Shown one piece after another: positions 1 to 21,517 of a stretch of DNA of 32,000 nucleotides (positions are counted from its first letter, which is position 1; every line of letters begins with the position of its first letter). The stretch is taken from positions 150,001-182,000 of the forward strand of contig JAZDEL010000009.1 in assembly GCA_043808785.1 (NCBI GenBank). Reading direction: 5' to 3'. This DNA comes from Candidatus Iainarchaeum sp. GTDB taxonomy: Archaea; Iainarchaeota; Iainarchaeia; Iainarchaeales; JAZDEL01. The notes under the pieces were generated by a model. The model was given only the letters and a program-made list of their open reading frames with translations, had not been told where the DNA came from and searched no databases. The position numbers and the translations under genes were made by a program.

Positions 1-1
1 C

Positions 2-613
2 GGCATTGCTTTCACGGCATACCTTTCAACAGCCCTTGGAACATTCTCGGGCACAATCAGGCAGGCACAGGTTATGGGCACGCTTGAATCAATGCTCGTA
101 ACCCCCACAAGCTTCACGGTTATGCTATTCGCCTCCTCGGGGTGGAGCTTCATTACCACGACAATAAATGTAATTATCCACCTCCTTTTCGGCATTTTTG
201 TTTTCGGGGTTGATTTGGGGAACGCGGACATCCCCGCGGCGATTGCAATCCTTTTGCTCACAATTGTTTCCTTCGGCGCTGCGGGCATAATTTCCGCCTG
301 CACAATCCTGCTTTTCAAGCGCGGCAATATTTTTGCATGGGCTTTCAGCAGCGTATCCGCGCTCCTGTGCGGCACCCTTTACCCCATAACAATCCTTCCC
401 GCCTGGCTGCAGGCATTCTCATATTTTCTGCCGCTGACATATGCCCTGCACGGAATAAGGCTTGCGCTTTTGCAGGGCTACTCTTTGGGCGCGCTTGCGG
501 GGGATTTGCTTGCGCTGCTTGCATTTGCGGTTGTGCTCGTTCCTTTGAGCATTGCAGTGCTGCGTTTCACGCTCAGGAAGGCAAGGCTGGACGGAAGCAT
601 TGCGGGCTACTGA
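2..613 (+). CDS. ABC-2 type transporter permease, C-terminal part (5' end lies outside the window)
   Basis: The frame is open from nt 2 (GIAFTAYLSTALGTFSGTIRQAQVMGTLESMLVTP...). It has the QxGTLExxLVTP-type motif typical of ABC-2 permeases, followed by 4-5 hydrophobic helices. The C-terminus (...LRKARLDGSIAGY) resembles that of the second ABC-2 permease at 14754-15578 (...FRVMSVQGY). Confidence 0.8.
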   Translation, partial: GIAFTAYLSTALGTFSGTIRQAQVMGTLESMLVTPTSFTVMLFASSGWSFITTTINVIIHLLFGIFVFGVDLGNADIPAAIAILLLTIVSFGAAGIISACTILLFKRGNIFAWAFSSVSALLCGTLYPITILPAWLQAFSYFLPLTYALHGIRLALLQGYSLGALAGDLLALLAFAVVLVPLSIAVLRFTLRKARLDGSIAGY

Positions 614-638
614 GCAAAAAGGCGTGCAGCCAGCCCTC

Positions 639-1421
639 TCACTTTATTATCATCGGTGCAACTATTGTCTTGTGCTTCCAGTAGGGGCAGCTTTTTGGCG
701 GGTTTACCCCGCATATCCTGTAATCAATTTTTGAGAACCCTGTGCGCTTCAGCGCATTTAAGTGCTTTGCCGAGAAGCCTTTTTCCTCGTTTGAGTAGTA
801 AGTGAAAACCCCGCCTTTTTTGAGGAGCGAATACGCCTCCTTGAAAAACGGGTGGTGGTAGCGGAAAACAAGATTCAGCACCTTTTTCTTTGAGGCATCC
901 TCGACTATGCTGAACCGCGTCTTTGCCTTGCTGCAAAGGTGCGCCCCCCCGAGGTAGTAAGAATCAAACAGGATGCCGTCGAAACTCCCCTTAGGGAACC
1001 TGCCGATTGCGTCCTCCCAGAAGCCGGTTATTACATTTACCTTCCCTTCGGCAATTTCCTTTTTGAACATTTTTTCGGCGTGTGCGGAGATGCCCGGATG
1101 GACCTCTATTATCGTGTGGTTTTTCACCTTCGGGTTTTCCCGGATGGCCCTTGCCGCAAGCCCCATGCCGTAGCCGACCTCAAGGATGTTGCCGCCGTTT
1201 TTTGTGGCGATTGATGCCAGCGTTTTCATGTAGCTGCGTATCCAGGTGTCCATTACCTGCCAGCCGCCCACAGTAAGCGAATTTTTGGTGAAGCAGGCTG
1301 GCTGCCTTATGAAATCCTTCTCGTCGGGTATATTGGCGTAGCTTACCCTCGCATCCCCGGAACCGAGGTAGTTTTGAAGTGATGCGCCTGCAGCCATAGT
1401 TGAAACCCCCCGGATAACCAC
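639..1421 (-). CDS. Class I SAM-dependent methyltransferase, guanidinoacetate N-methyltransferase (GAMT)/RMT2-like
   Basis: Motif I is GGNILEVGYGMGLAARA. Recalled vertebrate GAMT blocks match along the protein: VMDTWIRSYMKTLA vs VMERWETPYMHALA, GSFDGILFDSYYL vs GHFDGILYDTYPL, LLKKGGVFTYYS vs LLKPGGVLTYCN, and NPPKSCPYW vs PPADCRYY. The GTG at 1421 lies 27 nt from the TATA centre at 1448. An alternative ATG is at 1397. Confidence 0.85.
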   Translation of the reverse strand: MVIRGVSTMAAGASLQNYLGSGDARVSYANIPDEKDFIRQPACFTKNSLTVGGWQVMDTWIRSYMKTLASIATKNGGNILEVGYGMGLAARAIRENPKVKNHTIIEVHPGISAHAEKMFKKEIAEGKVNVITGFWEDAIGRFPKGSFDGILFDSYYLGGAHLCSKAKTRFSIVEDASKKKVLNLVFRYHHPFFKEAYSLLKKGGVFTYYSNEEKGFSAKHLNALKRTGFSKIDYRICGVNPPKSCPYWKHKTIVAPMIIK

Positions 1422-1443
1422 TGCTACATTTATCTACAAGCAT

Positions 1444-1452
1444 CTTTATAAG
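1444..1452. promoter_or_regulatory. Single near-palindromic TATA box shared by divergent genes
   Basis: CTTTATAAG sits in the middle of the 54-nt spacer. Its centre (1448) is 27 nt from the GTG at 1421 (minus) and 27-28 nt from the GTG at 1476 (plus). This is the archaeal TATA-to-TSS spacing and implies two leaderless mRNAs. Confidence 0.5.
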
Positions 1453-1475
1453 AATTTCACTAGCCAGTTGGTTCT

Positions 1476-2159
1476 GTGCTGACTATCGTAGTGCCCTGCC
1501 ACAATGAGGAACAGAACCTGGAGGAATGCATCCGCAGGGTTCCGCAGATGCCGTGGGAAACCGAAATAATTGTGGTTGACGACGGCAGCACGGACCGAAC
1601 CGCGCATGTTTGCCGCGGGGTTGCGGGGGAAGAAAGGCGGAAAGGCAGGGCCGTGCGGCTTGTAAGTTACGGGAAAAGCCGCGGCAAGGGGTTTGCATTG
1701 AGGCGGGGTTTGGAAAGCGCGAATGGGGGGGTAGTTGCAATACTTGATGCCGACATGCAGAACCCGCCGGAGGAGCTGCCGCACATTGTGGAGCCCATAA
1801 TGAACGGAAGTGCGGATTTTGTCAACACAAACCGCTTTGCGGGGGGAGGGCACGGATTCAATTTTCATTCCGCAAGGAACAGGCTCCTCGCATTCTTCTT
1901 TGCGGGCATTACAGGCATAAATGTAAGGGACTGCCTGAGCGGAATGAAGATTTTCAGGGCGGAACCGCTGAAGGGGCGGCTTAAAGAGGACGGCTGGCCC
2001 GATTTTGAGCTGCTTGTGCTCGCAAAGAGGCGCGGGATGCGCATTGTCGAACTGCCTGTCGCCTACGAACCGCGCGAAAGCGGAAAGTCGAAGATGCTTA
2101 CCCTGCGCGGAAGCGCGGGGCTTTTCAGGGCTTTTGCAGCCTCGCTGCTGCGGCGTTAG
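1476..2159 (+). CDS. GT2 family glycosyltransferase, dolichyl/polyprenyl-phosphate sugar synthase (Dpm1)-like
   Basis: The N-terminus is LTIVVPCHNEEQNLEECI, followed by IIVVDDGSTDRT and the DxD-containing ILDADMQNPPEELPHIVEPIMNGSADFV. This is the canonical GT-A/GT2 layout. Confidence 0.9.
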   Translation: MLTIVVPCHNEEQNLEECIRRVPQMPWETEIIVVDDGSTDRTAHVCRGVAGEERRKGRAVRLVSYGKSRGKGFALRRGLESANGGVVAILDADMQNPPEELPHIVEPIMNGSADFVNTNRFAGGGHGFNFHSARNRLLAFFFAGITGINVRDCLSGMKIFRAEPLKGRLKEDGWPDFELLVLAKRRGMRIVELPVAYEPRESGKSKMLTLRGSAGLFRAFAASLLRR

Positions 2160-4120
2160 CCGCGTTTGCACTGCGCCGCGAATTCCGCGCCCGCGGAGCG
2201 CAAAATTGCGGCCTTTTTTTCAGGGAATTCGTAATACAGTTCGTCAAGCGCGCGGATTATCCCTGCGCAGCAGTCCGCACTGTGTGTGCTGCCGAATGCC
2301 GTGCACATTGCACTGAATTCCGCAGGCACGGGCCCGCGGCGGTAAATGCTTATGTATGCCGCCCCCGCCGTGCAGTCGCCGTAAAACTCGGCGGGAGTGC
2401 CGGTGCATGCGCCCGAAATTGCGCCAAGCTCAAAGTAGCATGCATTTCTGTAGCGCGGGGAAAGCATTGCGCAGGTTTCGGGGGACTGCGGGATGTATGC
2501 TGCAAGGGTTTCGGCACAGCAGTCCGCGCAAACTCCGTCAAGCACGCCGCACATTGCGTTTGCGGTTTCAATGTCGCGCCCGTAGGCCATTGCAATGCCC
2601 CACACAATTCCCGAGTGGCAGTGTTTCCTGTATTCCGCGGGAACGGCGGCGCACCTGCTGATGGCGCTCTCAAGGCGTTCGCTGCTGTTGCATTCCGTGC
2701 CTGCGCATCGCTTTGCGAATATCTCGCCATAGCCTATGCCCTGCCCCAGGCCCCAATAGCAGTGCGCCCTGTTCTGCGCGTCAAATTTCCCGCACTGTTC
2801 AAGCGCGGCGGGAATGTCCGCGCCGTGCATCCCGCCCGGCTTTTTGGCAAGCCAGCCATAACAGTAAGGCCTGTAAACAGAATCGCCGCCGAAATTGAGG
2901 TTGCCCGGCTTGATAAGTGCGAGGTTTGAGGCAAGGCCCGCAAGCAGCAGCAGGCAGATTGCGGCAAATGCCGCAGGCGCAGCCCAACGCGGCAGGCGCA
3001 CCACCCCCGCTTTCGCTGTGAGGAGTGAGAACGCCTGCGCGATAATTATGAACATAAAGGGCAGCAGCGGCACAAAATACCTGAATCCCTTGCCGCCGAA
3101 TTCGGGATTGACGGTGAAACTGCCGAGGAGGTAGCCTGCGGAATAAATAATGAAAAATGCAATAGGGAATGCGGGCAAAAGGCTTTTTATGCCGCCGCTA
3201 TGCCGTGCTTTGCCGAATAATGAAAACGCAACAAGCAGCAGGGAAAGCAAAAACACGGCATAGTAAATGCAATTAAGCATCCAACCGTCCAAAAACAAAA
3301 GAGCCCTGAAATTCAGGGATGCGGGAAGTTCAACAAGGATGTAATTGGCTGTTTTCGCTGGCAGGGCCGCAAGCCTTTCCCCCGCGCCCGAAACAAACAC
3401 GGCCCTTGCCTGAACAAACACCGAGGTGCCGTACGCAAGCGCATAGTAAATAGCGGGGCTGAATCCCGCAAGGAATGACGCCGAGAACACTGCAAAATTC
3501 CTGCGCAGGAAAAAGCCCCTGTCAATTGCAAGCCAAAAAATAATGCATGTTATTAGCATCCCCGCAGTCATGCCCCCGAACCACAACGAGAAGCCCGAGG
3601 CAATGCCGAATGCCGCGAAGTCGCGCGCGCGGCTTCTGCCCCCGTAAAAAATGCGGAAGAAGAGGAACATCATCAGGAGCGTCAAAAATGTGTCCTCAAA
3701 CGCGTGCTGGGAAATCAGGCCGCGCACTGTGAAGAGCGGCGGGGAGAGCAGGGCAAGCAGGGAGGCTGCGATTGCGGTTTTCTTGCCGAAATATCTCCTT
3801 GAAATCAGGCAGATAAGCGCAAATGTGCCGAGGGAGAATGTGAAGAGCATCATCAGCTTGAGAGTGAAGCCCGAAACCCCGAAAAGCGCAAAGAAGGGCG
3901 CAATCAGGAAGGGCAGGGAGAGCCCCGCGCCGTCGTAGGGCACCCACATGTAATCAAAGTAGGGCATTCTCAAGCCCCGCATAAGCTCAAGCGCAACCGT
4001 GCCGCGCACGCACTCCTCGTAGTCAAAAAGTTCAAGGGATGTTGAGGCAATAAGAAGCCTCAATATGAGGAATGCGAGGACCAGTGCAATGAAAATTTTG
4101 CGTTCGATAACCCGTTCCAT
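2156..4120 (-). CDS. Polytopic GT-C glycosyltransferase (PMT/ArnT-like, GT39/GT83-type) with a C-terminal cysteine-rich extracytoplasmic domain
   Basis: The N-terminal half carries an acidic first loop (FDYEEC) and about 10-12 hydrophobic helices, patterned like PMT_2/ArnT proteins. The last ~245 aa hold about 20 Cys in repeated (R/K)xxC(Y/H)xG(L/I)(G/V)xG blocks. The ATG at 4120 is preferred over the TTG at 4144 because the TATA at 4149-4160 sits about 30 nt upstream. Confidence 0.7.
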   Translation of the reverse strand: MERVIERKIFIALVLAFLILRLLIASTSLELFDYEECVRGTVALELMRGLRMPYFDYMWVPYDGAGLSLPFLIAPFFALFGVSGFTLKLMMLFTFSLGTFALICLISRRYFGKKTAIAASLLALLSPPLFTVRGLISQHAFEDTFLTLLMMFLFFRIFYGGRSRARDFAAFGIASGFSLWFGGMTAGMLITCIIFWLAIDRGFFLRRNFAVFSASFLAGFSPAIYYALAYGTSVFVQARAVFVSGAGERLAALPAKTANYILVELPASLNFRALLFLDGWMLNCIYYAVFLLSLLLVAFSLFGKARHSGGIKSLLPAFPIAFFIIYSAGYLLGSFTVNPEFGGKGFRYFVPLLPFMFIIIAQAFSLLTAKAGVVRLPRWAAPAAFAAICLLLLAGLASNLALIKPGNLNFGGDSVYRPYCYGWLAKKPGGMHGADIPAALEQCGKFDAQNRAHCYWGLGQGIGYGEIFAKRCAGTECNSSERLESAISRCAAVPAEYRKHCHSGIVWGIAMAYGRDIETANAMCGVLDGVCADCCAETLAAYIPQSPETCAMLSPRYRNACYFELGAISGACTGTPAEFYGDCTAGAAYISIYRRGPVPAEFSAMCTAFGSTHSADCCAGIIRALDELYYEFPEKKAAILRSAGAEFAAQCKRG

Positions 4121-4148
4121 AATCAAAACTAATTTAAAGTGCAAAGTA

Positions 4149-4167: not shown

Positions 4168-4443
4168 ATGGCTCCGGAAAAAGTGTACTTTAGGGGGAAG
4201 AACATCCTGCGCAGGACTGTCGGGGGGAAAGAAATGATAGTGGATATTGGCAAGCAGACATTTTACCAGCTGAACACGGCGGGGACATTTGTGTGGGGGC
4301 AGATAAACGGCAGCAGGTGCACGGGTGAAATCGCGGCAAAGGTTGCAAAAAGGTTTGGCCTGCCCGAGGGGCGGGCAAGGGAAGATGTCGAGTCTTTCCT
4401 GAAAAGTATTGAAAAGGAAAAACTCGTAAGGCTGAAAGATTAA
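4168..4443 (+). CDS. PqqD-family protein (RiPP recognition element, lasso B1-like)
   Basis: 91 aa. The sequence is ...GGKEMIVDIGKQTFYQLNTAGTFVWGQINGSRCTGEIAAKVAKRFGLPEGRAREDVESFLKSIEKEKLV. This matches the PqqD pattern: beta strands, then xLNxtgxxiW, then a winged-helix tail ending in a fl..L...gL-type motif. The start may be the GTG at 4183. Confidence 0.8.
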   Translation: MAPEKVYFRGKNILRRTVGGKEMIVDIGKQTFYQLNTAGTFVWGQINGSRCTGEIAAKVAKRFGLPEGRAREDVESFLKSIEKEKLVRLKD

Positions 4444-4445
4444 GC

Positions 4446-4934
4446 ATGCTACAGGAGATGCATATGCTTTTCAGGCTGAAGAAAAAGCACCTGCGCCAGG
4501 CATGGAAGATTGCTGCAAGCCCTTCGGATGCCCTTCTTTTCATAGGGATATTTTTCAGCATCATAATTATTTCAGCCCTGCTTAAATTTTCAAACAGGAA
4601 AAGGATTTTCGAGATTATAAAGCCGGGGCGGGTGTTCAGGCCCGCAAACACGGACGAATACTGCCTCAAGCTCCGCAGGTATGCAAACTTCCTTTTGTCA
4701 AGGCGCACGCCGTGCTTCAGGCTCACCTGCATGAAAAGGGCGATTGTTTACTACATTTTTCTGAACATGGCAGGCATAGAATCAAGGCTGTGTTTTGGCG
4801 TGAGAAAAAATGACTGGGGGGATAAAGGTGCGCTTATGCATGCATGGGCAAGCGTGGGCAGCAAGCCCTTTCCCCCGAAAAGCGATGATGCCTCTGTTTT
4901 CAGGCAGGTGTGCTCGTTTCCCCGCGCGCGCTAG
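4446..4934 (+). CDS. Lasso-peptide B2-like leader peptidase (transglutaminase-core, McjB C-terminal type)
   Basis: It starts 2 nt after the PqqD stop. It has an N-terminal hydrophobic helix, then CMKRAIVYYIFLNMAGIESRLCFGVRKN...GALMHAWASVGSKPF. This matches the C...(L)xxGIxxxLxxGV...HAWV signature carrying the catalytic Cys and His of B2 proteins. Confidence 0.75.
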   Translation: MLQEMHMLFRLKKKHLRQAWKIAASPSDALLFIGIFFSIIIISALLKFSNRKRIFEIIKPGRVFRPANTDEYCLKLRRYANFLLSRRTPCFRLTCMKRAIVYYIFLNMAGIESRLCFGVRKNDWGDKGALMHAWASVGSKPFPPKSDDASVFRQVCSFPRAR

Positions 4935-5083
4935 GAAACCAATACCTGGCACCCGGCACCAGATGAGGCCTTCATGCAGGTTAATTTGGATGCATTTTTG
5001 TCAGCAACAGTGCATAGCGCGGCTGAAATTCTCTCAAATACCTCTTTGGACTCAATCGCCGGCTTTTCATATTTCCTCTTCAT
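4931..5083 (-). CDS. Candidate RiPP precursor peptide (50 aa): MKRKYEKPAIESKEVFERISAALCTVADKNASKLTCMKASSGAGCQVLVS
   Basis: The ATG at 5083 lies 7 nt downstream of the radical SAM stop (5091-5093), on the same strand. The peptide has a basic N-terminus, a YEKPAI motif (lasso leader YxxPxL type), three Cys in the C-terminal half and a C-terminal Ser. The six-frame track shows it only as the inner part of a 66-aa ORF (4931-5131). Confidence 0.5.
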   Translation of the reverse strand: MKRKYEKPAIESKEVFERISAALCTVADKNASKLTCMKASSGAGCQVLVS

Positions 5084-5090
5084 CGCAATA

Positions 5091-6176
5091 TTATGCACTT
5101 TTCTCTTTATTATTCTTTTCGTTTGCTGCAAGAGCCCTCCTTACGGCAAGCCTGTGAATCCTTGCCTGCCTGCAGCTTTCGCGCAACGGCATGTCAATGC
5201 CTCCCCCCTCAATCATTCTCAGCCCGGGGCAGGTAATGCAGTATGATTTCAGCCTGCAGGATGTGCAGGCTTCAAGTATTTGGCTTCCCGTTTCCCTTAG
5301 CTGTTTAAATGCTTCGGAATTATGCCAGATTTCCTTAAGGCTCCTTTCCCTTATGTTGCCGCCCCATATCCTGCCCAGCTCTATGCATGGAGATACATCG
5401 CCATAGGGGGAGATGCGGCAGGTATTCCTCCCCGCATAACAGCCTATCAGGTAAATGGGCTCTTTGTTATTCTCGCGTTCGGCAATCCTGCGCAGGATTG
5501 GGGTTTTTGAGCCCTTAAACCTGTCTGCATGCCATTCCGCCAGCTCCCTGTCGGAGAGCCTGAATTTGCACGGCCCTAGGGAACCGTCGTTCTTGGGGGT
5601 AACAAGCGCGGTGTGTGAAAACGTAATCTTTTTTTTCCTGCAGTGCTCTTTCAGGGGGGCGAACTCCCCCGCGTTCTGCTTCATGAATGTGCTTTTTGCA
5701 ACAACCTTAACCCTGCGCTTTTTTAGCAGGCGCATTGCCTCGATGGTTCTTTCAAGGGAGCCGGGCGTGCGTGTAATGCCGTCGTGTATTTCAGGCTTCA
5801 GGGAGAAGAGGCTTATCTCAACAGAGAGCGGGCTGAGGGATGCGAGTTTATCTGCCGCTTCCTCATCAATCAGCGTGCCGTTTGTAAGTATGCGTATGCC
5901 GAAGCCGCGTTTCCTTGCATAGCACGCTATTTCAAAGAAGTCCGCGCGCGCCAGCACCTCGCCGCCCGTGAATGTCAGAAAAAGGCAGCCCAGCTTTTCA
6001 AGCTGCCTTATTGCGGATTTTGCCTCCGCAGTTGTCAGTTCCTTTTCATGCCTTTGCACATTGTAGCACATTACGCAGTCCTGGTTGCATTTGTTTGTCA
6101 GCTCAATAATTGCCGAAATCGGGATGCACGCCTTTTCGGAATATCTCATCAGTTCTATGTATCCCATTGCCCGCAC
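5091..6176 (-). CDS. Radical SAM enzyme with C-terminal SPASM domain (RiPP maturase-like)
   Basis: The CxxxCxxC motif is NKCNQDCVMCYN, followed by FTGGEVL (a GGE motif). The C-terminal Cys cluster is GCYAGRNTCRISPYGDVSPC...ACTSCRLKSYCITCPG...ESC, enough for two auxiliary Fe-S clusters. The start is the GTG at 6176 or the ATG at 6167. Confidence 0.9.
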   Translation of the reverse strand: MRAMGYIELMRYSEKACIPISAIIELTNKCNQDCVMCYNVQRHEKELTTAEAKSAIRQLEKLGCLFLTFTGGEVLARADFFEIACYARKRGFGIRILTNGTLIDEEAADKLASLSPLSVEISLFSLKPEIHDGITRTPGSLERTIEAMRLLKKRRVKVVAKSTFMKQNAGEFAPLKEHCRKKKITFSHTALVTPKNDGSLGPCKFRLSDRELAEWHADRFKGSKTPILRRIAERENNKEPIYLIGCYAGRNTCRISPYGDVSPCIELGRIWGGNIRERSLKEIWHNSEAFKQLRETGSQILEACTSCRLKSYCITCPGLRMIEGGGIDMPLRESCRQARIHRLAVRRALAANEKNNKEKSA

Positions 6177-6185
6177 CTTGCAAGC

Positions 6186-6461
6186 CTACTTTGATTTCAT
6201 TACAAGCAGGCCTTCTTTCTCCAATTCATGCAGGAATTTCCGCACATCCCTTTGCACGGTTGTTTTTGCAGCATCATACTCCGCAAAGATTTTTTCAGCT
6301 ATGCCGCGCTCGCTGTTCCTGCTGTTTATCTTTCCCCATATTCTGGTGCCCGAGGCATTTAGCGTATATGCGCGGTAATTGCCTGTTTTTATTATCATTG
6401 CCTTTTTGCCAATGGCTCTTGAGGCAGTATCATTAGCCCTGCACGGCACTGCCGCTTTCAC
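6186..6461 (-). CDS. Second PqqD-family protein (RiPP recognition element)
   Basis: 91 aa. The sequence is ...AMIIKTGNYRAYTLNASGTRIWGKINSRNSERGIAEKIFAEYDAAKTTVQRDVRKFLHELEKEGLL, the same PqqD pattern as 4168-4443. Its GTG start overlaps the kinase stop (GTGA at 6458-6461). Confidence 0.75.
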   Translation of the reverse strand: MKAAVPCRANDTASRAIGKKAMIIKTGNYRAYTLNASGTRIWGKINSRNSERGIAEKIFAEYDAAKTTVQRDVRKFLHELEKEGLLVMKSK

Positions 6462-7384
6462 AGAATCCCCCCGAGTTTTGCCCCCTTTTCAAGGCAAAGT
6501 TCGTAGCACCTGCTTTGCATTGCGATTTCGCTGCACAAATTAAAAACTGCAACTGTTTTCCCCCTGCTTTTGTTCATGTGTATCGCGCACCCCATTAGCA
6601 TATGCAAGGCCTCGGCTTTCGGCAGTTCCGATTTTGAATTCCCGCGGCCTTTCTTTAGGAATAGGACTGAATCCATTTTAATGCCTTTGTTACTGCCGCG
6701 GTTCCCTGCAAGTGCGCCCCTGCCCCCCCAGAAGGGCGTGCCGAAAACGCGCAGCGTTTTGTTGACTTTGCGTATTGCGCAAATTTCATCATTAAGCACA
6801 AGCAGGCTCCTGCGGTTTGCCATTGAAATTGTTGTTTTGCCTGCCCCGCTCCTCCCCGGGAAAAGGAAGGCGCGGTTTCCCTTTGCAAGTGCGGCAGCAT
6901 GCACAAGCATGCCGCCCCTCTCGGCAAGGAAAAAGGAGAAGCAGTTCCTGAGGAAGACATCCACATTGTCCTCCTGCCCCTTATGCACCCAGACCTTCCC
7001 CGCGCTATTTCCTGCATCAATCATGCCGCGAATAAACCCGCATTCAATGAAAAGCTTCTTCCCTTTTGCATTTGTGAATATTGTTGTGTTTTCCCTGCTT
7101 CCTATGCCGTTGGAAACGGCAACCTCGACGCAAAAATGCGGCTTTTGTTTTGAGCGGAAATCCCTGTACTGCTTGCCTATGTAAGAAATGATTTCCGGGC
7201 TGTCAGACATTATGCGTGTGCAGATTCCCGCAACTTCAACAAGGCGCGTTTCGCAGTTTTTCGGGGGCGAAAAATTCCTGAATTCAATCTCACGCTCAGC
7301 CATTGGGAACAGCGGCGGCGGCAGGAAATTTTTTTGCATTGCCATATGAAACACAACATCAAAAATACAACATCGAACCAACAT
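6458..7384 (-). CDS. HPr kinase/phosphorylase-related kinase (HprK-related, RiPP-associated type)
   Basis: MLVHAAALAKGNRAFLFPGRSGAGKTTISMA...LVLNDEICAI matches the HprK C-terminal domain pattern (hHAsav...G.a.ll.G.SGaGKST...l.sDe). It is the first gene of the minus-strand operon. Confidence 0.75.
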   Translation of the reverse strand: MLVRCCIFDVVFHMAMQKNFLPPPLFPMAEREIEFRNFSPPKNCETRLVEVAGICTRIMSDSPEIISYIGKQYRDFRSKQKPHFCVEVAVSNGIGSRENTTIFTNAKGKKLFIECGFIRGMIDAGNSAGKVWVHKGQEDNVDVFLRNCFSFFLAERGGMLVHAAALAKGNRAFLFPGRSGAGKTTISMANRRSLLVLNDEICAIRKVNKTLRVFGTPFWGGRGALAGNRGSNKGIKMDSVLFLKKGRGNSKSELPKAEALHMLMGCAIHMNKSRGKTVAVFNLCSEIAMQSRCYELCLEKGAKLGGIL

Positions 7385-7427: not shown

Positions 7428-7480
7428 CGGATTGCTAACTAATTACGAACTAATTGCGCTGTAATTGTGTCGGTAATTAT

Positions 7481-8341
7481 ATGGGGCTAAAACTGAGGAA
7501 ATCTTGGCTTGTACTGCCCGTGGCAGTGGCTGCGCTCGCGGTGATCATTGCGGCGGAACTCCTCTGGCTGAACCCCGATGCGGCGGAGGGGGACGGTTTA
7601 GCGGGGCCGCTTGGTTTGGATGCGGGAGGGCTTACTGCAAACGACCAGAACAAGGAAATTTGCGGGGAGGGATACTATTACACAATTGAGTTTGACTGCT
7701 GGCAGAAAAAGGACAATCGCTTCTGTTACGGGGTGAGGGAAAACCCCGCAGGTTACTGTGCCGGGCCGAGCAACTGCGGCGTGTCAGGCTGCTGCCCTAA
7801 CCCGAATGACTGCAGGATGGATGGGCGTTGCTATGTCTCCGGAAAAGTCTTTACCGGGGACATGTTAGGCATAATGTGTTATGAGGGAAAATTCGGCCTC
7901 TGCCGTGAGGATGACGTATGCGAAGAGGTAGGGGGTTATTACTGTACCGGGGATACGTGGGTGGAGGAAGAGCCTGCAAATTGCGAGGGCGGGATTTCAA
8001 TCAAGCCGCCGGAGCCCGAGGATAGCAATGCGGGTACTGAACCAAAAGGCGACTGCCCCGAAGGCGAATTTTACCGCGGCGAGTGGGACTGTTTCGAGCG
8101 GGGGGATGATGAAAAGTGCGGCTCCGCGGATGCGGGGCACGGATGCTGCGCTTCCGAGGGGCAGTGCTGGTTCGGGGGAAGGTGCTATGCGGGGGGGAAG
8201 CCGCTTTCTGAAAGTTCGGAGTGGATATGCACGGAAGGGATGTGGGATAAGTGCATTGCTGATGACAGGTGCGAAAAACAGGGCACGTACCTGTGCAATG
8301 GGCTGGTGTGGTCTGCCCTGGCGCCCGAGGGGTGTGAATGA
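7481..8341 (+). CDS. Secreted/anchored cysteine-rich protein with an internal tandem duplication
   Basis: The ATG at 7481 gives MGLKLRKSWLVLPVAVAALAVIIAAELL, a signal or anchor sequence. Two homologous ~100-aa modules follow, each with about 11-13 Cys: C(G/P)EGxxY...(F/W)DC(W/F)...CC...GRCY..GK...C.EG...C..DD.CE..G.Y.C.G..W...P..CE. Confidence 0.75.
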   Translation: MGLKLRKSWLVLPVAVAALAVIIAAELLWLNPDAAEGDGLAGPLGLDAGGLTANDQNKEICGEGYYYTIEFDCWQKKDNRFCYGVRENPAGYCAGPSNCGVSGCCPNPNDCRMDGRCYVSGKVFTGDMLGIMCYEGKFGLCREDDVCEEVGGYYCTGDTWVEEEPANCEGGISIKPPEPEDSNAGTEPKGDCPEGEFYRGEWDCFERGDDEKCGSADAGHGCCASEGQCWFGGRCYAGGKPLSESSEWICTEGMWDKCIADDRCEKQGTYLCNGLVWSALAPEGCE

Positions 8342-8407: not shown

Positions 8408-8908
8408 ATGGCAAAGGCGCGGGCTGGAAAAGGATTCGGCGGCTTCGCTGCTGCATGCGCGGTTTTTTTGGCGCTGATGTTTGCCGTGCTCGCGGCAAAT
8501 TATTTCTATTTCAAGGAGGTTCCGCTGAAAACCCCGATAGTATGGGCGCTCGAGCCTGTTGCGCACATGCTTGTAATTATTGCGCTGTTCATGTTCTTTG
8601 CAAGGATGCGGCTAAATGATATGCCCGCATTTTTCACGGGATTTGCAAAAAGGTGGCCTTACCTGCTCATAGGCGCTGTGCTTGTCTGGGCAAGGTATTC
8701 CGTTGGAACGTTCGAGTTTTCAAAATACCTCACCGCCGCGGGCATCGCATCCCTAGGGCTTTTCGTTTTCGGCTTCAAACGCCTGAGAAGCCTGCGCAGG
8801 CGCTACGAGAGGGAGCTTATCCTTGCCGCACTTGCATACCTCTTCCTCCGGGTTGTGTTCGGGCTCGATTCGGTTATTTATTCCATGCTCATGATGCTGT
8901 TTGGGTAA
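8408..8908 (+). CDS. Hypothetical integral membrane protein (about 5 TM helices)
   Basis: The ORF is hydrophobic throughout, with positively charged loops (RLRSLRRRYERE). It is followed by oligo-T tracts. I recognised no family. Confidence 0.6.
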   Translation: MAKARAGKGFGGFAAACAVFLALMFAVLAANYFYFKEVPLKTPIVWALEPVAHMLVIIALFMFFARMRLNDMPAFFTGFAKRWPYLLIGAVLVWARYSVGTFEFSKYLTAAGIASLGLFVFGFKRLRSLRRRYERELILAALAYLFLRVVFGLDSVIYSMLMMLFG

Positions 8909-9033: not shown

Positions 9034-9059
9034 CGTATGCCATAATCTAATTGAAAAAT

Positions 9060-12000
9060 ATGGATAATAAGGGTTATCCGCGCACTGCGGGCAGAGGCGC
9101 GGGAAGGGGCTTTGCGGGAAAAAGCCGCGCAGGGGGCTTTGCGTTATTTTTGCTGGCAGTTGCAGTGCTCGCGCTTGCCTCTTATGCAGGCGCCTTCTGC
9201 ATAACCAATGCCGAGTGTGCGGCAATAAAATGCCCGCCAGCGGCGAACAAGGACACAACGCTCTGCAACAGCAAAACAGGGCAGTGCTACTGCGGGCCGA
9301 AAACCTGCGGGAACCTCGGCTGCGACAGGGGGGAAAACTTCATAAACTGCCCGTCGGAGTGCGCTGCAGGCTGCGGAAACCTCAGCTGCGAGCTCGGGGA
9401 AAACGGCAGGAACTGCCCCGCTGACTGCAGGGCTGTGTGCGGCAACAAGGTGTGCGAAACAGGGGAAACCGAATCAAGCTGCTTCTCGGACTGCGGGGGG
9501 AAACTGGACTGCTGTGAATATTCCACTGATGCGTATGCGGGCAAGGGGGCGTGCGTGTTATACTGCGCTGTGTGCGGCGACGGCTACTGCGACAGGCAGA
9601 GGGGCGAGGACAGGCTGACCTGCAGCAGGGATTGCGGAATGGCGGGCTGCGGCGACGGCATATGTGGAGCGGATGAGGACGCGCTGAACTGCCCTGCCGA
9701 CTGCCCGAAGGCGGAACTGGCGTGCGACGTGAACGCGCACTGCAATAAGCTTCCGAGCTGCAATTACGCGCCGCACGAGGAGAACATATATTACCTTGCT
9801 GAAAAGCCTGTCTTTAATGTGTGCAGCTGCATCACGGGAATGTGCGCAATAACCCTGCGCGCCCGCGATATTTGCGGCGACGGGTTCTGCAGCAGGGACG
9901 AGAGTTGCGACCCGACATTCGACAATTTCTGCAACCAGGACTGCGGAACATGCAGGCTTCCGGACCTTGCACTGGCGGGGCTGGAGGCCGACAAGGCTGT
10001 CGCTGAAAGCGGGGAAGGGGTTGCAATAACCGCCGCAGTAGAGAACCTCGGCTCAAAGGAGGCGGGCAAGTTTTCAATCTCGGTTTTCAGGGGAAGCGAG
10101 GGCGGGCAGATGCTTGAAACAGCGGAAATCCCCGGGCTGTTCCTTACCCCCGGAACAGGCGAAGAAAAGGTAGTAAGGTTCGGGAGCGAGGGGCAGCAGG
10201 GCGTGGCGCCGCTTGCAGTGGAGTTCGAATTCAGGGCTGAAGAGGGGAAGACTGTCGAGAGGTACGACCTTGATTTCGACGGGGATGGGACTTTCGACCT
10301 TTCGCTGAAGCCGCCTGTTTCAAAGGTTTCGCACACATACGGAAAGCCCGGCTTTTACAGGGCCACGACAACCGTAAGGTATGCCGACGGCAGCGGCGGG
10401 GAGAGCAGCGCGAACATAACCGCGCTTGAGCCGCAGCTGAGGCACACATTTAATCTTGACACAACAGGGATGTGTGGGGAGGTTCTGCTTGTCGTGAAGG
10501 CGGATGCGGAAGGGATTATTTCCGAGGCGAGCAGGGAGAACAACAGCAGGGCAATAGCGCTTAACATAAACTGCCCTGCGCTGCCCGTTGCTGTGTTCAC
10601 GGTTTCTCATGAGGGTAGGTTTGCGAAGTTTGACGCTTCCGCATCGCACAGCGATGAGGGCGATATCGTGCAATACAGGTGGGATTTTGGGGGCGGAAAA
10701 ACAATTGAAGCGGCGGATGCAATTGCGGAGCACACATATGAAACGGACGGCAATTTTTCAGTGAAGCTTGTTGTAGTGAATGCAGGCGGCAAGAAGGGCG
10801 CCGCTATCAAAAATGTTGTTGTCGGCACCCCCCCAAGCGCGAAAATAAGGCTCACTAATGGCAGCGGAATCGTGCCGCTGAAGATAGGGGCTGATGCCTC
10901 TGCGTCCTCCGACAGCGACGGGGAAATAGTTTCATACGCCTGGAAGTTCGGGGACTTGGAAAGCGCTGAGGGCATTCAGGCTGAGCACACATACCTCTCC
11001 CCCGGAGTTTACTCCCTGCTGCTCGAGGTTGTCGATGATGCGGGCCTGAGGGGAAGCGCTGTTTCGGAGGTTGTTGTTTTCGGCTCGCAGAAGGCGGACA
11101 TTGCCATAAAAATGCCGGCGCAGCCGGGCGATGTGGAACGGGAAAATGAAATTACTCTTGAGTTTTTGCTTTCAAACATCGACGGCGGGAATGCGGGGGC
11201 ATTTGATTTAGTGCTGAGGGAAGGGAAGCCCGACGGGAAAGAAGTCGCAAGGGAAAGCGTGCAGGGCATTAAATCAACGGAGTCCGTAACCGTAAAACTG
11301 AAAATAAAAACTCCCGAGGACCTCGGGCCCGTGGATTATTATGTTGTTGCCGACCCCGAAGACAGGGTAAGGGAATCGAACAAACGCGACAATGTGCTGC
11401 AGATTAGCCTGAATGTCATCCTGCCCGAGATTTGCGGCAACGATACGGATGATGATATCGACGGCTATGTGGATGAGGGCTGCGGGGTAAGCGTTGAGGT
11501 ATGCGCGAACAAAATCGACGATGATGGGGACGGGAAAATTGACGAGGGCTGCACGTGGACAGAGGCAATACTTGAGGGCGGGCATCTCATTGTTTCCGCA
11601 AAGGAGGAAGTGGTTACTGGGGAGCGGGCTGTTGTTGAGGTAAGCCACCCTCGGCTTGGGCCTGTTGAGGGTGCGGAACTTAAAATTATTTCACCGCAGG
11701 GGAAGGAAACGCGGCTGGCAACGGACAGCGAAGGGAAAGCCGTGCTTATGCTGAACGAGGTCGGGGAATACGCGCTTGTTGCGACAAAATACACGCTCAG
11801 GACAAGCCAGGGGCTGGCTGCGGTTTCGCAGGCAATGATTGCGGAAAGGCTTGCCAAAGTCCTGCCTGTTGCGCTGTTCGGGCAGGTTGCAATCGACCAG
11901 CCGCTGCTGATAATGCTGCTGCTTGCTTTGTGCGCGCTTGTTGCTGTGCTTGTTTTCGAGAGCGCGGAGCGGCTCTTCACAGAGGCGGAGTATGTGCCTG

Positions 12001-12221
12001 CCGAGGCACGGCAGAAGAGGGCGTTGAAATATGCCCTTGCGCTTGCGGTTGCAGCGGTGCCGCTGCTGATTAACAAGGTATACGGCTTTGAATTCGGCAC
12101 TGGAGTTGCCGCGGCAGGCCTGCTTGCAATGCTTTTCATCACATACAGCGCAAGAAAGGTCGACAGGCCCTGGGAAGCGGAGGGAGAACAAAGGCAGGAG
12201 GAAATGTTCCCGCCGGAATGA
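9060..12221 (+). CDS. Giant secreted, C-terminally membrane-anchored surface protein: Cys-rich CG(D/N)(G/L)xC repeats, CARDB-like and PKD domains, DxDxDG Cys motifs
   Basis: The signal-like segment is FALFLLAVAVLALASYAGA.
At least 6 modules of the type CGNLGCDRGENFINCPSEC, CGNLSCELGENGRNCPADC, CGNKVCETGETESSCFSDC, CGDGYCDRQRGEDRLTCSRDC, CGDGICGADEDALNCPADC and CGDGFCSRDESC follow.
There are CARDB-like segments (PDLALAGLEADKAVAESGEGVAITAAVENLGSKEAGKF and DIAIKMP...LSNIDGGNAGAF).
There are three PKD-like repeats (DLDFDGDGTFD...HTYGKPGFY, YRWDFGGGKT...HTYETDGNFSV and YAWKFGD...HTYLSPGVYSL).
A CGNDTDDDIDGYVDEGC / CANKIDDDGDGKIDEGC pair and 2-3 C-terminal TM helices complete the protein.
The ATG at 9060 is preferred to the TTG at 9051. 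Confidence 0.9.
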   Translation: MDNKGYPRTAGRGAGRGFAGKSRAGGFALFLLAVAVLALASYAGAFCITNAECAAIKCPPAANKDTTLCNSKTGQCYCGPKTCGNLGCDRGENFINCPSECAAGCGNLSCELGENGRNCPADCRAVCGNKVCETGETESSCFSDCGGKLDCCEYSTDAYAGKGACVLYCAVCGDGYCDRQRGEDRLTCSRDCGMAGCGDGICGADEDALNCPADCPKAELACDVNAHCNKLPSCNYAPHEENIYYLAEKPVFNVCSCITGMCAITLRARDICGDGFCSRDESCDPTFDNFCNQDCGTCRLPDLALAGLEADKAVAESGEGVAITAAVENLGSKEAGKFSISVFRGSEGGQMLETAEIPGLFLTPGTGEEKVVRFGSEGQQGVAPLAVEFEFRAEEGKTVERYDLDFDGDGTFDLSLKPPVSKVSHTYGKPGFYRATTTVRYADGSGGESSANITALEPQLRHTFNLDTTGMCGEVLLVVKADAEGIISEASRENNSRAIALNINCPALPVAVFTVSHEGRFAKFDASASHSDEGDIVQYRWDFGGGKTIEAADAIAEHTYETDGNFSVKLVVVNAGGKKGAAIKNVVVGTPPSAKIRLTNGSGIVPLKIGADASASSDSDGEIVSYAWKFGDLESAEGIQAEHTYLSPGVYSLLLEVVDDAGLRGSAVSEVVVFGSQKADIAIKMPAQPGDVERENEITLEFLLSNIDGGNAGAFDLVLREGKPDGKEVARESVQGIKSTESVTVKLKIKTPEDLGPVDYYVVADPEDRVRESNKRDNVLQISLNVILPEICGNDTDDDIDGYVDEGCGVSVEVCANKIDDDGDGKIDEGCTWTEAILEGGHLIVSAKEEVVTGERAVVEVSHPRLGPVEGAELKIISPQGKETRLATDSEGKAVLMLNEVGEYALVATKYTLRTSQGLAAVSQAMIAERLAKVLPVALFGQVAIDQPLLIMLLLALCALVAVLVFESAERLFTEAEYVPAEARQKRALKYALALAVAAVPLLINKVYGFEFGTGVAAAGLLAMLFITYSARKVDRPWEAEGEQRQEEMFPPE

Positions 12222-12269: not shown

Positions 12270-12713
12270 CTACTCCGCGCTTGCCCCGCTTCCCTTTATC
12301 CAGAAAAAGGCTTCCTGCCCGCTTCCACTGTATGACGCCACAACCCTTATTTTGAAAGGGTATGTTCGAAGTTCGGCAGGCACGTCAAGGGCTGCGGGAA
12401 CTTCAATGCTTTTCCCCGCAGGAACGAAAATATCCCCGCTCTTTATCAGCGTGCCCGCTGCAAAGAACCTGACGGCGTAATTCATGTCCCTGCCCTCCCG
12501 GTTTTCAATGCCGTATGTGAATACTGCCTTTCCGCCCCTTAGATAGCTGTCCCAGCTGTCGTGCACAAGGTAAACCGCTGTGCCGTGTTCTGGCTCATTG
12601 TAAGCGAGCATAACAAGCAGGGCAACAAGGCTGCCGGCTATAATAAGCGCAACGGTTGCCCTAAAAGCGAGGTTAACCAGTTCAGTATTTTCCTTTTCAG
12701 TTGCTTGGTTCAT
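12270..12713 (-). CDS. DUF1616-like protein, C-terminal half (one TM helix plus a beta-rich extracytoplasmic domain)
   Basis: The sequence is MNQATEKENTELVNLAFRATVALIIAGSLVALLVMLA, then TAVYLVHD...AVFTYGIENREGRDMNYAVRFF...IKSGDIFVPAGKSIEVPAAL. This resembles the C-terminal part of archaeal DUF1616 proteins (from recall). Its ATG overlaps the upstream stop (ATGA at 12710-12713). Confidence 0.6.
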   Translation of the reverse strand: MNQATEKENTELVNLAFRATVALIIAGSLVALLVMLAYNEPEHGTAVYLVHDSWDSYLRGGKAVFTYGIENREGRDMNYAVRFFAAGTLIKSGDIFVPAGKSIEVPAALDVPAELRTYPFKIRVVASYSGSGQEAFFWIKGSGASAE

Positions 12714-13072
12714 TTTAAAGGCCTCACAATGCATATCGCGTAAAGGAATACTGCTTCCGCCCCGACAACAATCGCGCTGTTCAGGAAGTTCATGGGCAGA
12801 TTAAGGATGAAATATGAAACAAGCACGCCGAAAACAACCGAAGGCACGGACAATGCGATTGCAAGCATAATTGTTTCAGCAAGCCCTGTCTCCCTCCGCA
12901 GCATTGCCGAGCACAACAGCGCGCCCACAGGGAAGAAAACAAGGTAAATTCCGAGCAATGCCTGCAGGTCGCGCAGCATTGCCATGCCTGAGAGGCGTAT
13001 TGCGGCAATCGCGAGAAGCGAAACTACGGCGCTTGCGAAAACAAGCGTGTCAGCGGTTCGGGACATAAACAT
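12710..13072 (-). CDS. DUF1616-like protein, N-terminal membrane half (4 TM helices)
   Basis: LLGIYLVFFPVGALLCSAMLRRETGLAETIMLAIALSVPSVVFGVLVSYFILN resembles the N-terminal TM block of DUF1616 (vlf.PGyal...l...erl.ls.glS). It overlaps the upstream gene end by 23 nt. Confidence 0.55.
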   Translation of the reverse strand: MFMSRTADTLVFASAVVSLLAIAAIRLSGMAMLRDLQALLGIYLVFFPVGALLCSAMLRRETGLAETIMLAIALSVPSVVFGVLVSYFILNLPMNFLNSAIVVGAEAVFLYAICIVRPLK

Positions 13073-14744: not shown

Positions 14745-14753
14745 TGTTTCCCC

Positions 14754-15578
14754 CTAATAGCCCTGCACGCTCATAACCCTGAAGAGCCTGCGGAAAAGGT
14801 AAACCGCCGCAAGAGGCGCGACAACCGCAAAGAAGAGCAGGTACATCAGCGGCTCGAAAGGCACAATGCCGTGGAGCCATATCGACCTGATTACATTAAC
14901 GCCCTGATATATGGGGTTGAAGTACGCTATCGTGGGGAGGATGCCGCCTATCGCGCCGAACTGCGGCACGCGCAGCACCTCAAGAGGGTAATAGAAGCAC
15001 GAGAAAAACACGACAACAATCCGCATATAGCCGAAGAGCGGGACAAAGTTCTCGTTGAACAGGCCTGCACAGCCGACAATGAGCCCTATGCTCAGCGAAA
15101 CAGTGAAAAGGAGCAGGAGCGCAAAGAGCACAAGCGCGAGATTGACGAAAGAAATCGGCATCAGGAAAAAGCAAAGCGCAAGGAACATCAGCGTCGAAGG
15201 GAAGAGGGAAATAGCCTCCGCAAGCCCCACACCGAAGATGAGCGAGAGCCTGTTTATGGGCGCGAGCAGGGTTGCATCAACGGTCTGCCAGTATTTCTCC
15301 GCGGTGAACTTCTGCAGGAACGTGGACCATCCGCTGAAAAAGAACACGTCCGCAAGCATGCCGAGCACAAGGAAAACAACGAAGTTCTGCGAGGTTACCT
15401 CGTTGCCTATTGCGGCAGTGCCCTGCCCCAGAAGAAAGAAGCCCCAGTAAACCAGGAGGAACGGCATTATGCGCATCAGCGGGGAAATCATGCTGTCCGC
15501 GAAGAATGCGAACTTGAAACGCATGGCAAGCGTTGTTTCCTTCTCGCCTATGGCAAGCGACTCGTCTATTATGCTCAT
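14754..15578 (-). CDS. ABC-2 type transporter permease
   Basis: 274 aa with six hydrophobic helices. Its ATG overlaps the stop of the upstream ATPase gene (ATGA at 15575-15578). The C-terminal pattern is similar to the partial permease at 2-613. Confidence 0.85.
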   Translation of the reverse strand: MSIIDESLAIGEKETTLAMRFKFAFFADSMISPLMRIMPFLLVYWGFFLLGQGTAAIGNEVTSQNFVVFLVLGMLADVFFFSGWSTFLQKFTAEKYWQTVDATLLAPINRLSLIFGVGLAEAISLFPSTLMFLALCFFLMPISFVNLALVLFALLLLFTVSLSIGLIVGCAGLFNENFVPLFGYMRIVVVFFSCFYYPLEVLRVPQFGAIGGILPTIAYFNPIYQGVNVIRSIWLHGIVPFEPLMYLLFFAVVAPLAAVYLFRRLFRVMSVQGY

Positions 15579-16570: not shown

Positions 16571-16620
16571 TCGGAAAACACCGCCTAAGCGTCAATTTCT
16601 AAGAAGAGTAAACCAAACTG

Positions 16621-16630
16621 TTTAATATAA
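16621..16630 (-). promoter_or_regulatory. TATA box (TTTAATATAA; TTATATTAAA on the minus strand) for the ABC/GT-C/DUF1616 operon
   Basis: It predicts a leader of about 28 nt containing AGGCGGTG, which resembles the Shine-Dalgarno core AGGAGGTG, about 8-10 nt before the ATG at 16570. Confidence 0.4.
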
Positions 16631-16699
16631 CTTTTCCCGCGGCTTTTTTCGGCCTGTTTTCGTTTTTTTCGCATTTCCCGGGAATGCCTTACCCTGCAA

Positions 16700-16712
16700 C
16701 TTTTAAATAAAG
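16700..16712 (+). promoter_or_regulatory. TATA box (CTTTTAAATAAAG) for the KaiC-like ATPase gene
   Basis: The centre near 16706 places the TSS near 16733. The short leader contains AGGGG 9-10 nt before the ATG at 16751. Confidence 0.45.
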
Positions 16713-16750
16713 ATTACCCTATTTACTATGGTTTTTAGGGGATGCCATAG

Positions 16751-17536: not shown

Positions 17537-17582
17537 AGGTTGCGATGCGTGCAGGGATGCACTGCACAGGGAGGCAGTTGCA

Positions 17583-20793: not shown

Positions 20794-20816
20794 GCTGAAC
20801 CAATATAACTGTTCAG

Positions 20817-21500: not shown

Positions 21501-21517
21501 TCGCACTATATATCAGC

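Follow-up and report, generated by a model that had tools for sequence, protein, structure and literature searches.

The window analysed here is a 32,000-nucleotide stretch of the DPANN archaeon Candidatus Iainarchaeum sp. (assembly GCA_043808785.1, contig JAZDEL010000009.1, positions 150,001 to 182,000). Six of its open reading frames (ORFs) are interpreted here as a cluster for a peptide made on ribosomes and modified after translation (RiPP), in which a leader-peptidase module of the lasso peptide type would be joined to a radical S-adenosylmethionine (rSAM) enzyme. On the plus strand, a discrete B1-like RiPP recognition element (RRE) of the PqqD type (PqqD#1, 4168-4443, 91 aa) is followed after a gap of 2 nt by B2 (4446-4934, 162 aa), a transglutaminase-core cysteine peptidase of family C96 with the motifs CMKRAI and GALMHAWASVG and a putative leader peptidase. 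On the minus strand, the gene of a ScmC-family P-loop protein and putative peptide kinase (GRSGAGKTT; 6458-7303 with the NCBI start, the longest ORF reaching 7384) overlaps by 4 nt with that of a second discrete RRE (PqqD#2, 6186-6461), which lies between it and the gene of a putative peptide maturase, an rSAM/SPASM enzyme (CNQDCVMC; 5091-6167, with a GTG at 6176 as a second possible start). Between the stop of the rSAM gene at 5091 and the start of a 50-aa precursor ORF (4931-5083; NCBI hypothetical protein V1676_06415, MFH1225406.1) lie 7 nt. The two units converge, the stop codons of B2 and of the precursor gene sharing 4 nt (4931-4934), and no terminator-like element is seen between these two genes. 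An earlier sequence-only reading had described six tightly packed genes in two converging units, and the ORF map and the sequence confirm this to the base, together with the coordinates, motifs and spacings given above.

The neighbourhood is kept in two relatives, L001 and L042, which answers in the affirmative the check for conservation that the sequence-only reading had proposed. L001 is a 19.9-kb Logan contig whose proteins are 51-66% identical to those of the window; it carries ScmC, PqqD, rSAM, a precursor (MKAKYEKPAIESKESFERISASLCLTTRTSSRPTCQKVSGTNCPAAKLS), B2 and a second PqqD, the last two separated by an arginase-fold gene and an NTP_transf_5 gene, and its flanks hold the same surface-protein and ABC genes as the window. 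L042, a 2.4-kb contig, carries rSAM, a precursor (MKAKYEKPAIESKEVFERISAVICNLPSRNSGRTTCAKQPEFLYCGGGNYS), B2 and an arginase-fold gene. As the whole set recurs in two relatives, with amino-acid identities of 52-66%, the six-gene set is not a chance arrangement. The convergent 4-nt overlap of the B2 and precursor stop codons is also present in L042 (1008-1011), and L001 has a 90-nt gap instead. The arginase-fold gene that adjoins B2 (L001:11958-12767, plus strand; L042:2-487, minus strand) matches PF00491 and is formimidoylglutamase/agmatinase-like, under cutoffs. Counted from the first Cys, the cores of L001 and L042 have Arg at +5 and +9, where that of the window, which has no arginase-fold gene, has Lys. 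OspR is a peptide arginase that converts Arg to ornithine, and the arginase-fold protein could be another, although with three loci the correlation is anecdotal.

The precursor of the window (MKRKYEKPAIESKEVFERISAALCTVADKNASKLTCMKASSGAGCQVLVS) consists of a leader, MKRKYEKPAIESKEVFER(IS), and a core with three Cys and a C-terminal Ser. It matches a family hidden Markov model (HMM) built from bacterial precursors and is the only YxxP precursor ORF of this family in the window. The family, tabulated from 26 unique sequences, follows the pattern Y(W)-x-x-P-x-Φ, a fixed spacing, F-E-[T/S/R] and a short core. The last residue is Ser in 24 of the 26 (one has Thr, and one is an apparent frameshift), two Cys are found in 21 precursors, and Asp and Glu are nearly missing from the cores, most of which have none. 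Bacterial cores are about 22 aa long and carry two Cys, as in MALSCGKVQSTQGQCHFNRKNS. The three archaeal precursors, by comparison, have near-identical leaders and cores that vary except for three Cys at conserved positions and the final Ser. The leader reads YEKPAIESKEVFER here versus YQKPAFRHERVFET in the bacterial relatives, and the archaeal peptides are longer by two residues (IS) between FER and the core, so that the leader/core junction differs where the peptidase, as described below, differs as well.

The rSAM enzyme had been recognized from CNQDCVMC and a SPASM Cys set; the motif is present, and matches to PF04055 (E=1.9e-26, from residue 24) and to the SPASM family PF13186 (E=3.1e-13) bear the assignment out. 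The enzyme has no fused RRE, its best solved relatives are the RiPP maturases SkfB, PqqE and SuiB, and it shares 40-44% identity with the rSAM enzymes from the bacterial ScmC cassettes presented below (for example P0009 in L006). Its top NCBIfam E-values belong to NirJ2 and AhbD, and from these one might argue that it is a cofactor- or heme-type enzyme (NirJ/AhbD-like), that the small ORF is spurious and that there is no RiPP here. The NirJ2 and AhbD matches cover the N-terminal half only and score far under the cutoff, there are two adjacent PqqD RREs, and the small ORF recurs in three archaeal loci and in more than 20 bacterial ones, classically with a leader that is conserved and a core that varies; we therefore hold such a reading to be extremely improbable. 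A metagenome scan with patterns from the three archaeal rSAM enzymes returned 80 loci, nearly all of them with unrelated rSAM enzymes (best 38% identity), only a few being cassette members and none having B2.

Both RREs match PF05402, PqqD#1 with 51.6 bits (E=1.2e-13) and PqqD#2 with 54.8 bits (E=1.2e-14), as had been anticipated for a PqqD-like RRE beside B2 and for a second one with a GTGA overlap. The lasso-specific NCBIfam PqqD models do not recognize PqqD#1, which scores 35.8 bits against lasso_PqqD_Bac, under the cutoff of 80. It has an ortholog in L001 (51% identity) and is 32% identical to PqqD#2. In a comparison that took in the B2-coupled PqqDs of L124-L128 and one lasso B1, PqqD#1 and PqqD#2 were mutual best non-orthologous matches (46-50 bits versus at most 37.5 bits for other PqqDs), and the archaeal B2-linked and rSAM-linked PqqDs formed sister groups in a neighbour-joining tree. 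This closeness would fit a duplication within the lineage or a convergence on one leader, and it is suggestive, although not strong, evidence that both RREs bind the one precursor.

The P-loop protein had been called an HprK-like kinase, a name that stands only in part. The curated HprK-related models are not reached (29.4 bits for HprK_rel_A, TIGR04352, and 29.1 bits for HprK_rel_B, TIGR04355, against cutoffs of 200, with the P-loop region only aligned), and the family is PF27840 ScmC, a Pfam match precomputed for the identical NCBI protein; what stands is a PEPCK-like fold in a confident model. This AlphaFold2 (AF2) model (pLDDT 89.7, pTM 0.88) has ATP-PEPCK as its top Foldseek match (E=2.5e-9, TM 0.53-0.56), and a sequence profile compared with the PDB reaches PEPCK at 2.6e-5. 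The catalytic domain of HprK/P lies in the PEPCK superfamily (the SCOP fold "PEP carboxykinase-like"). His135, Gly150, the Walker A GKTT (Gly155-Thr158), Leu170, Asp172 and Pro190 are invariant in 28 homologs, as is the whole SGAGKTT in a 17-sequence ScmC subset, and the P-loop with its downstream Asp172 is an arrangement that we take to parallel the P-loop and catalytic Asp of HprK/P. The predicted fold together with the Walker A motif, the preceding His and the downstream Asp places the protein in the PEPCK/HprK-like superfamily of P-loop phosphotransferases. Furthermore, the ScmC HMM picks up a Pfam-certified Hpr_kinase_C protein in the bacterial locus L126 (E=7.5e-8) and a lasso-linked kinase in L033 (E=9e-14). 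Given this fold, the invariant residues and these HMM links, a kinase-type function of ScmC is plausible, if inferred.

The architecture could also be just as we describe it with a ScmC protein that is no Ser kinase and catalyses an adenylylation or another activation, or acts as an NTP-dependent scaffold, the C-terminal Ser then serving another purpose. The protein does form a family of its own (PF27840), its structure matches PEPCK and not HprK/P, the curated HprK-related models pass it over, and in LPP, a Bacillota system to which we return below, phosphorylation occurs at core Ser3 and not at the C terminus. We nevertheless find this reading rather unlikely in view of the invariant GKTT, His135 and Asp172 with their presumed HprK/P parallel, of the two HMM matches to Hpr_kinase_C and to the lasso-linked kinase, and of the C-terminal Ser, which is the exact site of the lasso-associated kinases. 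The core Ser just before the first Cys was also considered as the kinase site, by analogy with Ser3 of LPP, and was rejected, as that position holds S, T or A, in contrast to the C-terminal Ser, which hardly varies.

Context look-ups of ScmC and rSAM homologs together with a genome scan yielded 37 non-redundant bacterial loci, which were annotated with HMMs; the scan pattern was taken from the 17-sequence ScmC subset and cannot match the window's own ScmC sequence. Judged from this annotation, the minus-strand unit is not unique to the window and represents a widespread, uncharacterised bacterial cassette. The hosts are mostly Acidobacteriota, and also include Myxococcota/Polyangia, Chloroflexota, Kiritimatiellia, Anaerolineales and one Thermomonas. 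Near ScmC we found an rSAM gene in 35 of the 37 loci, PqqD in 32, a peptidase of about 160 aa resembling S24/S26 in 28, a homologous precursor in 23 and, within 8 kb, an NTP_transf_5 gene in 14. B2 lies inside the cassette in none of the 37, and 35 of them have no Asn synthase within 10 kb. Among the NCBIfam models, TIGR02228 (archaeal-type signal peptidase I) fits the cassette peptidase best, with SipW next. Bacterial cassettes have a single PqqD, in the position of PqqD#2, and the gene order is ScmC-PqqD-rSAM-precursor-peptidase-NTP_transf_5 in L003 and L006 and precursor-peptidase-ScmC-PqqD-rSAM in Acidobacteriota.

The signal-peptidase-like gene is missing from all three archaeal loci, and an HMM for S24/signal peptidase I (SpI) has no match in the window or L001. 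The archaeal B2 follows directly after the precursor, in the slot that the peptidase has in L003 and L006, and the PqqD–B2 pair lies in or beside this slot. From the gene order of the window (ScmC-PqqD-rSAM-precursor-[B2, PqqD#1]) set against those of L003 and L006, the exchange of leader peptidase thus sits in the peptidase slot. The sequence-only reading had proposed a chimera of a lasso-type leader peptidase with an rSAM crosslinking architecture, for which profiles, cyclase negatives and conservation all provide support; in terms of gene content, this chimera reads as a swap of the leader-peptidase module, from a signal-peptidase-I-like enzyme to PqqD plus B2.

One of the bacterial loci, from a Thermomonas sp. 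metagenome-assembled genome (L033:1-20483), has a ScmC-PqqD-rSAM cassette with precursor (9041-11903) between two lasso modules, one with a B2-like ORF (16-498) and Asn_synthase (495-2393), the other with a kinase (16452-17438), B2 (17354-17968), B1 (17880-18227) and an Asn_synthase resembling a cyclase (18824-20482). The locus further contains two NTP_transf_5 genes and an ABC exporter, and no SpI-like peptidase was detected in it. As true lasso modules lie on both sides of the cassette, lasso and ScmC modules can meet. In L003, L004 and L005, a second rSAM/SPASM gene (381 aa; 7452-8597 in L003) is located about 1.4 kb upstream of ScmC beside transposase (rve) remnants, echoing the layout with two rSAM genes of the SynChlorMet cassette. 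In L008, L019, L020, L023 and L034, the cassette genes are split over several ORFs, and the precursor of L023 is read through; these splits are probably long-read frameshift errors and not pseudogenes.

The assignment of B2, which might have failed in profile searches, held: the protein scores 45.2 bits with NF033537 lasso_biosyn_B2 (curated NCBIfam cutoff 33) and 43 bits with PF13471 Transglut_core3 (cutoff 26). Cys95, His132 and Trp134 are invariant over the 27 nearest B2-family sequences, all of which match NF033537, and Asp147 is invariant in the three archaeal copies. The dN/dS values against orthologs (0.21-0.38 for B2, 0.21-0.30 for rSAM and 0.24 for ScmC), which are rough because dS is about 1, indicate purifying selection on B2 comparable to that on rSAM and ScmC. 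A word-indexed search recovered the three archaeal copies as the only relatives of B2, and 259 relatives at E<=1e-3 came out of an exhaustive profile search, with one representative at E<=1e-30 (the archaeal group) and the next best at 1.5e-19. None of the 78 metagenome stretches matched by B2 peptide patterns was a true relative, and a profile search of the PDB with B2 gave no match. Weak Foldseek matches of the B2 model to a vasohibin, a transglutaminase and a pseudomurein endoisopeptidase fit the fold and are no evidence. In P0229, P0231 and P0243, a B2-family domain is N-terminal in proteins of 550-568 aa, the B2 model being their sole NCBIfam match.

We surveyed the loci of the five nearest non-archaeal relatives of B2 (L123, L124, L125, L126/L127 and L128) and found no Asn synthase in these contexts. 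L125 (3335-11920; GCA_018400015.1, JAGYNB010000001.1; GC 33%, bacterial judging by the neighbouring genes) has the order NTP_transf_5 … 61-aa ORF – P-loop kinase-like – PqqD – rSAM – B2 – rSAM – ABC – ABC-2, with a 61-aa ORF ending in GAWVSS, a P-loop protein with GKTGCGKST and rSAM enzymes of 336 and 607 aa; it is a second, independent architecture of kinase, RRE, rSAM and B2 without cyclase. L126 (6710-12144) and L127 have rSAM – PqqD – B2 – VIT/VWA – Hpr_kinase_C (PF07475) – acetyltransferase, and a simple motif search found no precursor in them; their rSAM enzyme has 329 aa and a short Cys-rich C-terminal domain. L124 shows a SPASM-like C terminus – PqqD – B2, L128 shows PqqD – B2 – NTP_transf_5, and the context of L123 is uninformative. 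Judging from these nearest contexts, the B2 clade habitually occurs with rSAM and RRE and without a cyclase, and as the nearest bacterial B2s occupy cyclase-less rSAM-PqqD-B2 operons, the architecture is recurrent and no one-off. The idea that B1/B2 were recently captured from a canonical lasso cluster was considered and rejected, since PqqD#1 is nearest to PqqD#2 and the B2 relatives are in rSAM operons.

The PqqD#1–B2 pair might still have nothing to do with the rSAM unit, being either the relic of a decayed lasso cluster or the servant of another, undetected precursor. The pair is on the opposite strand, its two genes are split in L001 by the arginase-fold and NTP_transf_5 genes, and L033 shows that lasso and ScmC clusters may merely lie side by side. 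The state of B2 argues against a relic, as the gene is intact in three genomes at dS≈1, with dN/dS of 0.21-0.38 and with Cys95 and His132 invariant. A link with the rSAM unit is further suggested by the lack of the signal-peptidase-like gene in all three archaeal loci, by the lone YxxP precursor of the window, by the 4-nt overlap of the B2 and precursor stops that recurs in L042 and by PqqD#2 being the closest paralog of PqqD#1. We consider an unrelated pair improbable.

No asparagine-synthetase-like cyclase had been seen in the 32 kb, and all our searches agree. They covered 32 kb of the 182.6-kb contig, 15 kb of L001, and L042. Pfam scans found no Asn_synthase-like ORF among all large ORFs of the window. 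When E. coli AsnB was compared by phmmer with all six-frame ORFs (35 aa or longer), no match at E<=10 came up in the window, and none in L001 or L042; the same search did pick up Asn-synthase homologs in two bacterial loci. An HMM from seven Asn-synthase/lasso-cyclase sequences, run with --max, reached at best E=2 over the window, L001 and L042, versus 1e-170 to 1e-270 for its positive controls.

These negatives bear on the possibility of an ordinary lasso cluster in which rSAM and kinase are tailoring enzymes and the cyclase is encoded outside the 32-kb window. Lasso hallmarks in the window are B1, B2, a YxxP leader and an HprK-like protein, the cassette of L033 is flanked by genuine lasso modules, the window represents 32 of 182.6 kb, and its core would in principle allow an A1-D8 ring (AALCTVAD). 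Not only is the cyclase lacking from the window, L001 and L042, however, but the ring acceptor is not conserved, as the L001 core is wholly free of Asp and Glu, and the core of L042 has neither at positions 7-9 counted from any plausible N terminus; for want of a usable Asp or Glu, two of the three archaeal cores cannot form a lasso ring. Moreover, the nearest B2 relatives are without a cyclase too, as are, within 10 kb, 35 of the 37 bacterial cassettes. A lasso cluster with a remote cyclase is, to our mind, quite unlikely.

Our favoured reading, which we hold to be somewhat better than an even bet, is that this DPANN archaeon carries a functional cyclase-less RiPP cluster of the ScmC/RRE/rSAM family in which B1/B2 replace the signal-peptidase-like enzyme. 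In our current working model, both RREs would bind the conserved Y-E-K-P-A-I motif of the leader. PqqD#2 would hand the precursor to the rSAM/SPASM enzyme, which would crosslink the core cysteines, most likely through thioethers of the sacti- or ranthipeptide type, and also to ScmC, which would phosphorylate a Ser in an NTP-dependent reaction, most likely the C-terminal one, on the model of the HprK-like kinases of paeninodin-type lasso peptides. PqqD#1 would activate B2, B2 would cut the leader near FER(IS)|A, and the product would be a crosslinked non-lasso peptide.

Several points weigh against this cyclase-less cluster or parts of it. The B2-containing ScmC variant is known from three related loci only, and with 32 of 182.6 kb of the contig covered, a cyclase may yet lie elsewhere in the genome. 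The HprK-related and ScmC NCBIfam models score 25-29 bits versus cutoffs of 125-200, and the fold match of the P-loop protein is PEPCK, HprK/P being absent among the 50 structure matches listed. As regards B2, the third catalytic residue does not line up cleanly with the family consensus in the 27-sequence alignment, the AF2 model, built from a three-sequence alignment, has low confidence (pLDDT 66.9), and Foldseek returned nothing significant for it. The thioether nature of the Cys crosslink made by the rSAM enzyme is a guess at the level of the enzyme class, and both the cleavage site near FERIS|A and the role of B1/B2 in removing the leader are inferred. Thr at -2 is typical of lasso substrates, and the leader is without it, no Thr standing ahead of the putative FERIS|A junction. 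A lasso variant using a penultimate Ile has been reported (PMC10368454), and it is speculation that the Ile at -2 in FERIS|A might be relevant to it.

As a rule, each class of RiPP has leader peptidases of its own. If B1/B2 process an rSAM-modified, non-lasso peptide, RRE plus B2 would be a portable module, and this would matter for the evolution of pathways and for engineering because B2 tolerates varied cores. That B1/B2 (C96) form an interchangeable RRE-dependent module within a large family of non-lasso, rSAM-crosslinked and probably C-terminally Ser-phosphorylated peptides, extending from Acidobacteriota and other bacteria to DPANN archaea, seems to us an evenly balanced proposition. We know of no characterised RiPP from DPANN archaea. 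Our reading, if true, would give B2 peptidases their first non-lasso substrate and DPANN archaea one of their first RiPP pathways, and the compact six-gene cluster gives a testable archaeal case. It would also draw attention to a large untouched RiPP family with a ScmC-type P-loop protein, an RRE, an rSAM/SPASM enzyme, a signal-peptidase-like protease, NTP_transf_5 and 22-aa cores ending in Ser. A 2023 review of RiPP leader peptidases lists the C96 transglutaminase-like proteases as leader peptidases of lasso peptides only (PMC10885120), and our search of the literature on PF14907 or PF13471 found no paper treating a non-lasso B2 or a ScmC-PqqD-rSAM cassette.

Around the cluster, positions 1-4144 and 12270-31987 of the window hold many glycosyltransferase, methyltransferase and ABC-2 transporter genes. 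Three neighbours are syntenic in L001, namely, a Cys-rich 295-aa repeat protein without a Pfam match (7454-8341), a membrane protein (8408-8908) and a 1056-aa PKD/CARDB surface protein (9051-12221). Other large ORFs of the window encode, according to Pfam, a KaiC-like ATPase, a TPR protein and PKD/CARDB surface proteins. No tRNA or Rfam feature was found in the window, and a scan of it for sigma-70 promoters and terminators gave no excess over the shuffled expectation, the sigma-70 model not being meaningful for an archaeon. Such surroundings are reminiscent of the polysaccharide loci in which LPP and paeninodin clusters are reported to lie.

LPP clusters of Bacillota encode an SpI-like LppS, the RRE LppB, the HprK-like kinase LppK, the NTP transferase LppN and an exporter (Popov et al. 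2026, Nat Commun, PMC13381572). Their leader motif is YxxPxVLxHQxIxFETxxS, the RRE-dependent leader peptidase cleaves after Thr-1, and core Ser3 is polyphosphorylated (PMC13381572). The clusters have no cyclase, are often neighbours of paeninodin-type lasso clusters and embedded in polysaccharide loci, and are reported as restricted to Bacillota, and radical SAM is never mentioned in that paper (PMC13381572). Like LPP, the window has a discrete RRE, a P-loop protein of the HprK superfamily and no cyclase, and both are found within a glycosyltransferase-rich surface-polysaccharide region. The leaders are alike as well, with Y-x-x-P … F-E-T in LPP and Y-E-K-P … F-E-R in the window, the spacing from P to FET being 2 residues shorter in the window family than in the LPP motif. 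The bacterial relatives of the window share with LPP an SpI-like leader peptidase and NTP_transf_5. Unlike LPP, the window has rSAM and B1/B2 and lacks SpI, NTP_transf_5 (present in L001) and an MsbA-like exporter; moreover, LPP has an HprK-type kinase with core Ser3 as its target, whereas the P-loop protein of the window is of the ScmC type and not Hpr_kinase_C. Since leader motif, SpI-like peptidase, NTP_transf_5 and RRE are shared, the ScmC-rSAM cassette looks like a relative of LPP that contains rSAM.

Where a lasso cluster bears a kinase, this enzyme phosphorylates the C-terminal Ser, to which a hexose is then attached by PsmN (PMC9266682). With such paeninodin/pseudomycoidin-type clusters the window shares a split B1 (PqqD) and B2, a YxxP leader, a kinase-like P-loop protein and a precursor ending in Ser, which is their phosphorylation site, and L001 shares NTP_transf_5 in addition. 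In contrast to them, the window lacks a cyclase, a conserved ring acceptor and Thr at -2, and has an rSAM/SPASM enzyme with an RRE of its own. Sacti- and ranthipeptide systems resemble the window in their rSAM enzyme with a full SPASM domain, in RRE-dependent recognition and in conserved core Cys; the window differs in that its RRE is separate, that no family model is reached and that a kinase-like protein and B2 are added. We found no relevant paper that combines an HprK-type kinase, radical SAM and PqqD, lasso or RiPP, and none on the SynChlorMet cassette. That cassette (ScmC, ScmD, ScmE and ScmF, TIGR04248-04251), defined by Haft through bioinformatics only, has the same trio of ScmC, PqqD and rSAM-SPASM. 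The window stays below its NCBIfam equivalog cutoffs (24.9 of 125 for ScmC, 22.2 of 100 for ScmD and 111.5 of 400 for ScmE) and has one rSAM enzyme where SynChlorMet has two. Together, these comparisons describe the archaeal locus as a B1/B2-bearing variant of a large, uncharacterised rSAM-RiPP family that forms a link between LPP, phosphorylated lasso peptides and cassettes of the SynChlorMet type.

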